From: Escherichia coli
GTDB lineage: Bacteria; Pseudomonadota; Gammaproteobacteria; Enterobacterales; Enterobacteriaceae
DNA: 64,000 nt
Assembly: GCF_044324875.1 (NCBI RefSeq)
Contig: NZ_CP172185.1
Reading direction: 5' to 3' (one strand)
Below, in pieces: positions 34,301 through 36,044 of the stretch. The notes under the pieces were generated by a model. That model was not told the DNA's origin and ran no database searches. It saw only the letters and a program-made list of their open reading frames with translations. A program made the translations under genes and the position numbers. Each line of letters opens with the position of its first letter. Within the stretch, counting starts at the first letter, position 1.

Positions 34301-34855
34301 ATAGCGCAGATCAGACAGTATGTTGATGATAAGGGAAGTCAGATCACACAGAGCACGGATAAAAAACTGGGATCCTGGAATGCCAGCATTGAGCAGATAC
34401 AGAAAGTTCAGGAGGACACGCGCCGGAACCTGAACAGCATGTGGGCTGTGAAGCTGCAGCAGACACGGGATGGACGTCTCTATATTGCAGGTATTGGTGC
34501 CGGAATCGAAAATACGTCTGACGGAATTCAGAGTCAGATCCTGATGCAGGCAGATCGTATTGCGATGATTAACCCGGAAAATGGCAATACAACACCTTTG
34601 TTTGTGGCTCAGGGTGATCAGCTGTTCATGAATGATGTTTTCATGAAAAAACTGACCGTGGATTTTGCCAGAGTGACGGGAGATATCCGGTCAGATAATT
34701 TTCATTCCGGTAGTCCGGGGTGGCGTTTATCAAGAAACGGCAGCCTTGAAATTAACTCAGGAAGGCCCGGCGCAGGCCGCCTGTTTTTCAATGGCGAGCG
34801 AATCGACGTATATGACGATAACAATGTGTTAAGAGTACGACTGGGGAGACTGTAA
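31313..34855 (+). CDS. J: Host specificity / central tail fibre protein J with repeat-containing C-terminal region
   Basis: 1180 aa; N-terminal two thirds lambda J-like; C-terminal region has tandem repeats. Confidence 0.9.
33851..33916 (+). repeat. Tandem 33-nt in-frame repeat in J ([11 protein letters not shown] x2)
   Basis: GAGAATGCGATTAACCGCGAAATGACGCAGCTG duplicated head-to-tail. Confidence 0.8.
34007..34354 (+). repeat. Tandem 174-nt in-frame repeat in J (58-aa unit x2)
   Basis: VAKKSGEQS(L/M)AIA(K/E)VDRKVD...[13 protein letters not shown](V/I)RQYVDDK repeated with a few substitutions. Confidence 0.8.
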
Positions 34856-35115
34856 TGTTCGGAGTCCGGGTATGGCGCAAAGGGCGCCTTGTGACACATG
34901 AAATAAACCCAACAGGGGTGCTGGATGTGATCACTGAAGGGACGGGGCAGCGTTCTTATACTCCTTTGCAGGGCTGGCGTCTGGAAGTCTGTTCACCGGC
35001 CATTCTGATTAACGGTCAGGGAAGTCATACCAGTGCCAGTGTATCCGGCTGGACAGTGCACTATGCCAACACAAGCTGGTTAAGACCCGTGCTGGTCATG
35101 ATAAGGGGGATCTGA
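34855..35115 (+). CDS. Hypothetical protein (86 aa), start overlaps J stop
   Basis: TAATG overlap with J stop; no recognised domain. Confidence 0.4.
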   Translation: MFGVRVWRKGRLVTHEINPTGVLDVITEGTGQRSYTPLQGWRLEVCSPAILINGQGSHTSASVSGWTVHYANTSWLRPVLVMIRGI

Positions 35116-35777
35116 TGTTTGCACTTAAATTAACTGATGAGCGGGGGAGAGAATGGATATCACCTGTTGCGCCGCCACTGAACCTTGTGCGCCGTTTTCA
35201 TTTCACACTGAGTGCGCGTGATGCGGTGATGCAGTTTATCGACACCGGGGTGCCGACGAATTATCGTTGCGTGATTTTTATTAAACAGATAAGCGGTAAT
35301 CAGTCCTTCCATGGTGAAATGGTTCAGCTTAACGGTACCTGGCAGTATGACATTTTCAGCGCTGGTACAGGGCAGGAGCCGGGCATGGAACAGGACAGCA
35401 CATATGTTGTTTATGTTTTTGCCAACATGGTGAATGTATGGCCGCAATGGGGAATACAGTTGTGCGACAGTCATGGCAGGGTGGTCTGGAACACGGAAAT
35501 GCTGCCACTGGAAGTAAAAATGACGCGAATATGGGAAAAGGATGTACCGATCAGTGTGGGACATGATGTGGCCGTAATGCCGGGGTGTACCCAGTGGACG
35601 ACAGTTCAGGAAGGGGAGAGTTATTACTGGTATACCGCCAGTTTTAATGCCAGAAACTCACAGTTATGGCGTCAGTCAACTTTTGCTGAAGATAACGTAG
35701 CGGCGCCCAATGATAATTCAGGTGTTGTTAATAACCTCTGTTATTACATAAATGCAGAAATTTATGATGCGTACTGA
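35115..35777 (+). CDS. Hypothetical protein (220 aa), start overlaps upstream stop
   Basis: ATG overlaps upstream TGA; Trp/Tyr-rich; no recognised domain. Confidence 0.5.
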   Translation: MFALKLTDERGREWISPVAPPLNLVRRFHFTLSARDAVMQFIDTGVPTNYRCVIFIKQISGNQSFHGEMVQLNGTWQYDIFSAGTGQEPGMEQDSTYVVYVFANMVNVWPQWGIQLCDSHGRVVWNTEMLPLEVKMTRIWEKDVPISVGHDVAVMPGCTQWTTVQEGESYYWYTASFNARNSQLWRQSTFAEDNVAAPNDNSGVVNNLCYYINAEIYDAY

Positions 35778-35798
35778 TAGTTATGTTGAGGGCATGTA

Positions 35799-36044
35799 AT
35801 GAAAATAATCGTCTGCACTTTTTTGCTGTTTCTTGTATCAGGTTGCGCGGGGTACCGTTCCGTTACGGAGAGAGTCCGGTGCACCGGTGTGCTGAGTCCC
35901 GGGGTTTTACAGCGAGCTTATACGGTAGATCTTACAGGGAAAATAGAAACGAAAAGCGGCACTGTGTATAAAGTATCAGCTCCGAGATTTTATGGTCAGT
36001 GGGTGAGTGAAGATATGTTTACGAAAGTTTCGTGCGTGAAGTAA
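35799..36044 (+). CDS. Small lipoprotein (81 aa)
   Basis: Signal peptide with lipobox LFLVSGCAG; SD GAGGG upstream. Confidence 0.5.
   Translation: MKIIVCTFLLFLVSGCAGYRSVTERVRCTGVLSPGVLQRAYTVDLTGKIETKSGTVYKVSAPRFYGQWVSEDMFTKVSCVK

Follow-up and report, generated by a model that had tools for sequence, protein, structure and literature searches.

In the 64,000-nucleotide stretch of the Escherichia coli contig NZ_CP172185.1 (RefSeq assembly GCF_044324875.1; hereafter the window), a J-like central tail-fibre or tail-tip gene is followed by three small open reading frames (ORF1, ORF2 and ORF3), which a first-pass annotation had described as unrecognisable cargo. Our analysis shows that this type of cassette is already known, and that the allele in the window is a divergent copy of a J-tip receptor-binding cassette with a putative cognate exclusion lipoprotein. 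In this lambdoid E. coli prophage, positions 34648-36105 very probably constitute a single exchangeable module for host recognition, consisting of an adaptor, a receptor-binding protein and an exclusion lipoprotein. The module begins within the J gene (31313-34855, + strand, 1180 amino acids), whose last 69 codons (34648-34855) form its 5' part. It continues on the same strand with ORF1 (34855-35115, 86 amino acids, gp22-like), a putative adaptor that would join the receptor-binding protein to the J tip, with ORF2 (35115-35777, 220 amino acids, gp23-like), the proposed receptor-binding protein, and ORF3 (35799-36044, 81 amino acids), a Cor-like outer-membrane lipoprotein and proposed superinfection-exclusion factor. 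An intrinsic terminator (36080-36105, + strand) closes the cassette, in which the hairpin CCCGCAATTTTGCGGG is followed by the T-run ATTATTTTTT.

The three reading frames lie on the + strand at the positions given by the first-pass annotation, and the translational coupling to J that it proposed agrees with the overlapping start and stop codons. As described there, the junction between J and ORF1 is a TAATG overlap, in which the ATG of ORF1 and the stop codon of J have one base in common (cTGTAATGttc). The junction between ORF1 and ORF2, given as an ATGA-type overlap, reads TGATG (atcTGATGttt), which is a minor correction. Between ORF2 and ORF3 we found a 21-nucleotide gap with a GAGGG Shine-Dalgarno sequence, and the lipobox of ORF3 together with the hairpin and T-run identifies it as a lipoprotein gene with its own terminator, again as annotated. 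The locus belongs to an E. coli prophage and is present in 9 of 5426 complete E. coli genomes at 99.7-99.9% identity, carriers including TUM9803, LH50-c and B771. Protein homologues of 48-65% identity occur in prophages of other E. coli, Salmonella, Citrobacter and Arsenophonus, and as these keep the gene order and the start/stop overlaps, the three are real genes and not chance reading frames. A megablast of the locus against a phage collection gave no match, and the guanine-cytosine profile does not change abruptly where the module begins and ends.

RefSeq (PGAP) names ORF1 and ORF2 'hypothetical protein' and starts ORF1 at an internal downstream GTG, yielding a protein of 74 amino acids that lacks the conserved N-terminus M-x-[YF]-G-[IV]-x-V-W (window 34855-34890). 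The N-terminal extension is conserved among relatives, reading MYGIQVWRKG in the relative at locus L008 and MAYGIQTWDASG in phi80 gp22, which supports the 86-amino-acid start. Gene callers made the 74-amino-acid call also in four 933W-like E. coli prophages (loci L007-L010). ORF3 is not annotated by RefSeq in the genome examined (window 35799-36044; locus L001, 6292-6516).

The statement that none of the three products is recognisable did not survive profile searches, which assigned ORF2 to PHROG 425, ORF1 to PHROG 557 and ORF3 to the Cor families and thereby recovered the order J-gp22-gp23-cor. The cassette is a distant homologue, at 20-32% identity, of the J-gp22-gp23-cor genes of phi80, N15, HK022 and T1. 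In phi80 and T1, J is followed by an 'outer membrane protein' of ~100 amino acids (N15 gp22-like), a 'membrane associated protein' of ~225 amino acids (N15 gp23-like) and cor. ORF2 gave the strongest match, covering PHROG 425 with residues 1-218 against profile positions 3-224 of 224 (expectation value (E) 3.3e-27). In BLAST searches it showed 26% identity to 933W p65 (E 3e-14), 23% to bas04_0023 (E 6e-14) and 21% to phi80 gp23 (E 3e-6); identity to T1 gp31 is 21-22%. A full-length alignment of six diverse gp23-like members contains 16 invariant columns, including a C-terminal I..YD. A search for related loci with ORF2 alone retrieved only two identical viral contigs.

The match of ORF1 to PHROG 557 (E 2.8e-4) is weaker than that of ORF2 to its family. 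A tblastn search with ORF1 against phages gave no match even at E 0.1; therefore, profile methods were needed, and the profile built from the gp22-like family alignment (A2) retrieved 200 proteins. Invariant in this alignment are M1, G3, G10, P19, G54 and G65. Two candidates of an exhaustive ORF1 search, P0117 and P0118, were discarded as spurious, being long repetitive proteins with many weak repeat matches. We further asked whether ORF1 is a copy of an ORF2 domain, and the comparison of the two family alignments by hhalign (A2 against A1) aligned only a 15-column motif at 33% probability. The motif [YFW]-G-x-x-[IVL]-x-[DN]-x-x-G occurs three times in the pair, at residues 2-12 of ORF1 and at residues 2-13 and 112-123 of ORF2. 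It stands at the same three places in the pairs of phi80, Bas04, 933W and PEV2, and it led MAFFT to place gp22-type proteins wrongly over the central part of gp23. The recurrent motif may represent an element that docks on the three chains of the fibre tip, although the profile comparison gave it a probability of only 33%.

To delimit the module, we compared the window with the prophage of NZ_CP158426, which carries lom. By blastn, its tail matches the window at 96% identity as far as position 34647, and the identity returns at 36079. The exchanged block (34648-36078) thus consists of exactly J codons 1112-1180 and ORF1 to ORF3, and its counterpart in NZ_CP158426 is a longer, DUF3672-type J C-terminus with lom. 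This comparison agrees with the first-pass annotation in placing the three genes in the lom slot, and it bears on the question raised there of a co-variation with J: ORF1 to ORF3 are swapped as one block with the J C-terminus. As the module boundary at 34647 lies inside J, the J end travels with the reading frames. J itself is a J-like tail-fibre or tail-tip protein, as judged from an NCBIfam lambda_TipJ match over residues 1-927, Pfam matches to FNIII-A_GpJ, Phage-tail_3, Ig_J, Ig_J_second and Phage_Tail_Tip (residues 1026-1151), and end-to-end alignment with the J proteins of phi80, T1 and Bas04 at 29-31% identity. Its coiled-coil stalk contains in-frame tandem repeats of 2.4 x 33 base pairs (bp; 33847-33924) and 1.9 x 174 bp (34007-34332, 92% matches), which are also present in the lom-type J. 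In NZ_CP158426, the J gene is interrupted by IS1414.

The J end follows the pattern ...V.D..G.LRV..G.L, which is conserved in every compared fibre that precedes a cassette of the gp22/gp23 family. These are the J proteins of phi80, T1, Bas04 and the Salmonella and Arsenophonus relatives, and further 933W p63, the Litunavirus short fibre and the fibre that belongs to the closest relative of the cassette; a tblastn search detected the end domain in 599 phage records. We infer that the conserved end serves as a docking domain for ORF1 and ORF2. The three genes had been read as unrelated cargo in the variable region between J and the side tail fibre. This reading draws on the lom slot, on the fact that neither ORF1 nor ORF2 has an NCBIfam or PADLOC match above threshold, and on the missing Pfam match of ORF2. 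It is contradicted by homology, synteny, the module boundaries and the fold of ORF2 (see below), and we consider it scarcely credible for the set of three. The notion of host-serving cargo holds for ORF3, which would protect the host, and fails for ORF1 and ORF2, given the receptor-binding-protein fold, the homology to DEV gp54 and the block exchange with the J end. With ORF2 homologous to a virion receptor-binding protein, both of the latter genes are probably tail components.

A Pfam scan returned no match for ORF2 or ORF3, and a sequence search of the PDB with the ORF2 family profile (A3) had no hit with an E of 1 or below. The structure that AlphaFold2 predicted for ORF2 from a 98-sequence alignment is all-β (predicted local distance difference test score 82.6, predicted template modelling score (pTM) 0.83). 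The top Foldseek match of this model is the receptor-binding protein of phage Oekolampad (PDB 9rpt chain C; probability 1.00, E 0.029). That protein occupies the same slot next to J, and its receptor binding has been established by cryo-electron microscopy (cryo-EM); the adjoining lipoprotein of this system, Rtp45, acts from the periplasmic side to block the receptor (bioRxiv 10.1101/2025.07.07.663478). Judging from the predicted model, ORF2 shares a common fold with the Oekolampad receptor-binding protein and Rtp44 and is not a member of their family.

Neither ORF1 nor ORF2 contains a signal peptide or a membrane segment (Kyte-Doolittle maxima over 19 residues of 0.61 and 0.88, respectively), so that the membrane and moron names of the PHROG families look unfounded for both. 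The same observation bears on the idea that ORF1 and ORF2 are membrane-associated accessories of Cor exclusion and that all three genes form a non-virion exclusion or moron cassette for the benefit of the host. An exclusion-related role was assumed for gp22/gp23-type proteins because of their association with cor (PMC13164509), and the lom slot would suit it. Besides lacking membrane segments, however, ORF1 and ORF2 are translationally coupled to a late structural gene, occur as a pair without any Cor-like gene in the Salmonella relatives and in 933W, and are found in virulent phages; the fold of ORF2 matches a receptor-binding protein, and the orthologues in the Pseudomonas phage DEV are essential, with gp54 (and both proteins in LIT1) reported as virion structural proteins. 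Thus, we regard an exclusion cassette of this kind as improbable.

Phage DEV (Litunavirus) provides an experimentally studied parallel to a receptor-binding module of this layout. Behind the gene of its J-like short fibre, gp56, come gp55 and gp54, the starts of which overlap the preceding stops (PMC12892993). All three are essential; gp54 is a virion protein that binds the receptor, and suppressors of an lptD mutation map to it. Cryo-EM combined with AlphaFold3 put a single copy each of gp55 and gp54 at the tip of the trimeric gp56, where gp55 is the adaptor. The orthologues of both proteins in phage LIT1 were reported as structural, the virion status of gp55 in DEV itself being uncertain (PMC12892993). 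In the related phage PEV2, the orthologues of gp55 and gp54 comprise 99 and 223 amino acids and the overlaps are ATGA. The end of the PEV2 fibre is 30% identical to J residues 1088-1180 of the window (E 7e-11), and its 223-amino-acid protein aligns to the ORF2 family profile over 121 columns, that is, the N-terminal half (hhalign 86%, E 5e-6).

Small genes right after fibre genes often encode chaperones, and ORF1 and ORF2 are coupled to J. One or both of them might therefore assist the assembly of the J C-terminus and be absent from the mature virion, leaving receptor binding to J itself; in FhuA phages, J is still taken for the receptor-binding protein in several papers (PMC10373560). Set against this, the J end is conserved across phages that use FhuA, BtuB and LptD, whereas the ORF2-type proteins vary with the receptor. 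Moreover, the closest fold to ORF2 is that of a protein solved in complex with its receptor, DEV gp54 and the LIT1 orthologues are reported as structural, and the suppressors of receptor changes map to gp54. A pure chaperone role is thus unlikely in our view.

ORF3 starts with MKIIVCTFLLFLVSGC, a signal peptide whose lipobox (VSGC) occupies residues 13-16; residue +2 is an alanine. A lipobox signal peptide followed by a mature protein of ~60 amino acids is expected of Cor and Llp proteins, and ORF3 has both. It matched PHROG 27799 (E 1.2e-8) and PHROG 1119 (Cor; E 8e-7), and is 32% identical to phi80 Cor (BLAST, E 1e-7) and 28% identical to T1 Cor. In an alignment with phi80 Cor, T1 Cor, bas04_0025 and the L008 homologue, the cysteines C28 and C79 are invariant and the G-C of the lipobox is kept as well. 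A search of the PDB with the Cor-like profile gave only non-significant hits at the level of the signal peptide, namely T5 Llp (8a60_B, E 0.13) and a phage lipoprotein (9rps_D, E 2.5). PADLOC reported zero families for the three ORFs. No Ail_Lom or outer-membrane β-barrel match was obtained for ORF1 to ORF3 in PHROGs or NCBIfam, or for ORF2 and ORF3 in Pfam.

By analogy with DEV, the Oekolampad/Rtp systems and Cor/Llp, ORF1 most likely acts as the adaptor, ORF2 as the receptor binder on the tip of the J trimer and ORF3 as the matching exclusion lipoprotein. The last 69 residues of J would be where the trimeric central tail fibre ends. ORF1 and ORF2, predicted soluble β-proteins made together with J by translational coupling, would assemble on this tip and thus be located in the virion, presumably in a 3:1:1 arrangement of J, ORF1 and ORF2. 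There, ORF2 would contact an outer-membrane protein and trigger irreversible adsorption, with ORF1 connecting it to the fibre. ORF3, if expressed in the lysogen, would be exported, lipidated and sorted to the outer membrane, as its alanine at +2 suggests, where it may inactivate the same receptor from the periplasmic side. In this way it would shield lysogens and infected cells from phages using the same receptor and keep progeny off debris.

Several observations weigh against this assignment. The family membership of ORF1 is statistically weak, with the PHROG value of E 2.8e-4 and a blastp value of E 0.025 to Bas04_24, and the 99-amino-acid protein of PEV2 aligned to the ORF1 family over only its first 14 residues (14 columns, 45%). 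A model of fused ORF1 and ORF2 reached a pTM of only 0.62 and says nothing firm on the complex. ORF3 scored 28.4 bits against the NCBIfam Cor model (NF047972), below its cut-off of 31; therefore, we call it Cor-like and not a Cor equivalog. A promoter scan found no sigma-70-like site before ORF3; the whole region contained one promoter-like match, compared with a mean of 2.8 expected by chance from shuffled sequence. In the literature, we found no direct evidence for gp22/gp23-type proteins in virions of enterobacterial phages, the J C-terminus is unresolved in the cryo-EM structure of T1 (PMC11945409), and one paper proposes an exclusion role of these proteins together with Cor, as discussed above (PMC13164509).

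We then examined the relatives of this allele. A word-indexed search for proteins with at least 50% identity to ORF2 returned only two clusters, ORF2 itself and one of 52% identity (P0002) from 933W-like, short-tailed E. coli prophages. Its locus is the closest relative of the whole cassette, with an ORF1 homologue of 63%, the ORF2 homologue of 52% and an 81-amino-acid lipoprotein homologous to ORF3 (48%), joined by the same codon overlaps and lying behind a 421-amino-acid Phage_Tail_Tip fibre with the same C-terminal end. Profile searches extended the relatives of ORF1 to other genera. In the Salmonella relatives, J is followed by proteins of 86 and 216 amino acids and by hok, without a lipoprotein, and in the Arsenophonus relative by proteins of 87 and 221 amino acids and an opposite-strand gene with a TonB_C domain. 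The start/stop overlaps are kept in the E. coli, Salmonella and Arsenophonus relatives. In the Citrobacter relative, an ORF1/ORF2-like pair lies ~2 kb from a J-like gene with the same end. Judging from this gene content, the ORF1-ORF2 pair is the constant unit and the lipoprotein an optional third member.

Some features of these relatives deserve mention in their own right. 933W p64 (ST933Wp64; locus L004, 4717-4995) is annotated with 75 amino acids and appears to be N-terminally truncated; a TTG at position 4717 of that locus, preceded by AGGAGG, would add (M)EYGFAIYNRNNVNVTG, which matches the N-terminus of the family. In the Arsenophonus nasoniae prophage, the gene at the usual place of cor (locus L017, 5913-6359, - strand) encodes a 148-amino-acid TonB_C protein with a hydrophobic N-terminus, which could be an alternative means of interfering with a TonB-dependent receptor. 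The ~2-kb spacer of the Citrobacter freundii prophage (locus L015, 2915-5001) carries genes for a lysozyme, a GIY-YIG homing endonuclease and small membrane proteins, and the third gene there encodes a coiled-coil membrane protein, not a lipoprotein. The 933W-like E. coli prophages have a hok/gef toxin gene close behind the cassette (L007-L010, ~7217-7357), and so do the Salmonella relatives (L019, 6148-6300; L020, 2731-2883).

Downstream of the terminator, the window continues with a side tail-fibre gene with collagen-like repeats (36117-37445), followed by a DUF4376-type assembly gene. The G-x-y repeats (36582-37172) have periods of 45, 90 and 135 bp, and the length of the fibre varies among carriers (442 amino acids in the window, 529 in TUM9803), consistent with variation in repeat number. 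Just downstream of the tail-fibre assembly gene lies an IS66-family element (38287-40222, - strand) with a 512-amino-acid transposase and a 115-amino-acid TnpB-like ORF; in TUM9803, the assembly gene itself is interrupted by an IS66-like element.

Our findings correct the annotation of this region, placing a probable adsorption module where RefSeq has 'hypothetical' and PHROG has membrane or moron labels. They describe 34648-36078 as a portable unit, through which a lambda-type J tip with lom is exchanged for a docking tip with a separate receptor-binding protein and an exclusion factor; such units are needed for host-range engineering and for receptor prediction from genomes. Furthermore, a siphovirus J and the short fibre of a podovirus share one clade of the cassette, which documents the exchange of receptor modules across morphotypes. 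As to the receptor itself, we put forward, as a conjecture that we would sooner doubt than rely on, that this allele and its relatives of 48-65% identity in 933W-like E. coli, Salmonella and Citrobacter prophages recognise an outer-membrane receptor not yet assigned to the superfamily. As part of the same conjecture, three conserved [YFW]G-x6-7-G hairpins (the N-termini of ORF1 and ORF2, and ORF2 residues 112-121) could together build a pseudo-threefold socket that fits a 1:1 heterodimer onto the threefold J tip as a cap. If the receptor is indeed new, the receptor repertoire of the superfamily would be extended and ORF3 would be a new receptor-blocking lipoprotein.

In small siphoviruses, the terminal receptor goes with the locus that lies behind gpJ (PMC8594841; bioRxiv 10.64898/2026.04.02.716166), and the cassette occurs in the FhuA phages T1, HK022, N15, ES18 and phi80 (PMC13164509). 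The cassette of these phages agrees with that of the window in gene order, sizes (~90-100 and ~220 amino acids and a lipoprotein of ~80), position after J and the conserved J end, as well as in the PHROG families 557, 425 and 1119 and in the Cor lipobox and two cysteines of ORF3. The window cassette differs from those of phi80 and T1 in that identity is only 21-22% for ORF2 and 28-32% for ORF3, the latter lying under the NCBIfam Cor cut-off; thus, the receptor specificity of the phi80/T1 type is not transferable to the window, and the specificity of the Cor-like ORF3 may differ from FhuA. Within this framework, receptor-specific families are separated at 30% identity (bioRxiv 10.64898/2026.04.02.716166), and ORF2 is at most 26% identical to FhuA- or BtuB-linked alleles. 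Its distances to the FhuA-, BtuB- and 933W-type alleles are much the same and point to no one receptor.

Phage Bas04 (FritzSarasin, Warwickvirus), whose terminal receptor is BtuB (PMC8594841), has a cassette of the same families, with a Cor-like lipoprotein, a gp22-like and a gp23-like protein (bas04_0025, 0024 and 0023), but between ORF3 and bas04_0025 there is no significant similarity (E 0.25). In the virulent phages Bas04 (locus L003, 4451-5615; BtuB) and Rtp (locus L014, 8753-9918; LptD), the cassette is convergent to J with the lipoprotein first, whereas the temperate phages and the window have it in the same direction as J, with the lipoprotein at the end. The Oekolampad receptor-binding protein and Rtp44, LptD binders of small siphophages, are single chains of 254-311 amino acids that, in contrast to ORF2, have no gp22-like partner; Rtp44 has no significant sequence similarity to the ORF2 family (hhalign against A3, 6%), and Rtp45 has nothing but the signal peptide in common with ORF3. 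Lambda lom shares with the cassette the interval between J and the side tail fibre in otherwise 96%-identical prophage tails. Lom is nevertheless an Ail-Lom β-barrel outer-membrane protein unrelated to phage adsorption and without sequence relationship to ORF1 to ORF3, and unlike the window cassette it comes with the different, longer DUF3672 J C-terminus. In the short-tailed Stx phage 933W (Sepvirinae; p63 fibre, p64 and p65), the pair stands behind a podovirus tail fibre and not a siphovirus J, and 933W itself carries lom, with no Cor-like gene behind p65. The DEV module belongs to another host and morphotype and is directed at LptD, and the PEV2 locus has no exclusion lipoprotein after its two genes. 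Nevertheless, DEV shares with the window the succession of fibre, adaptor and receptor-binding-protein genes joined by start/stop overlaps, which in the window are TAATG and TGATG.

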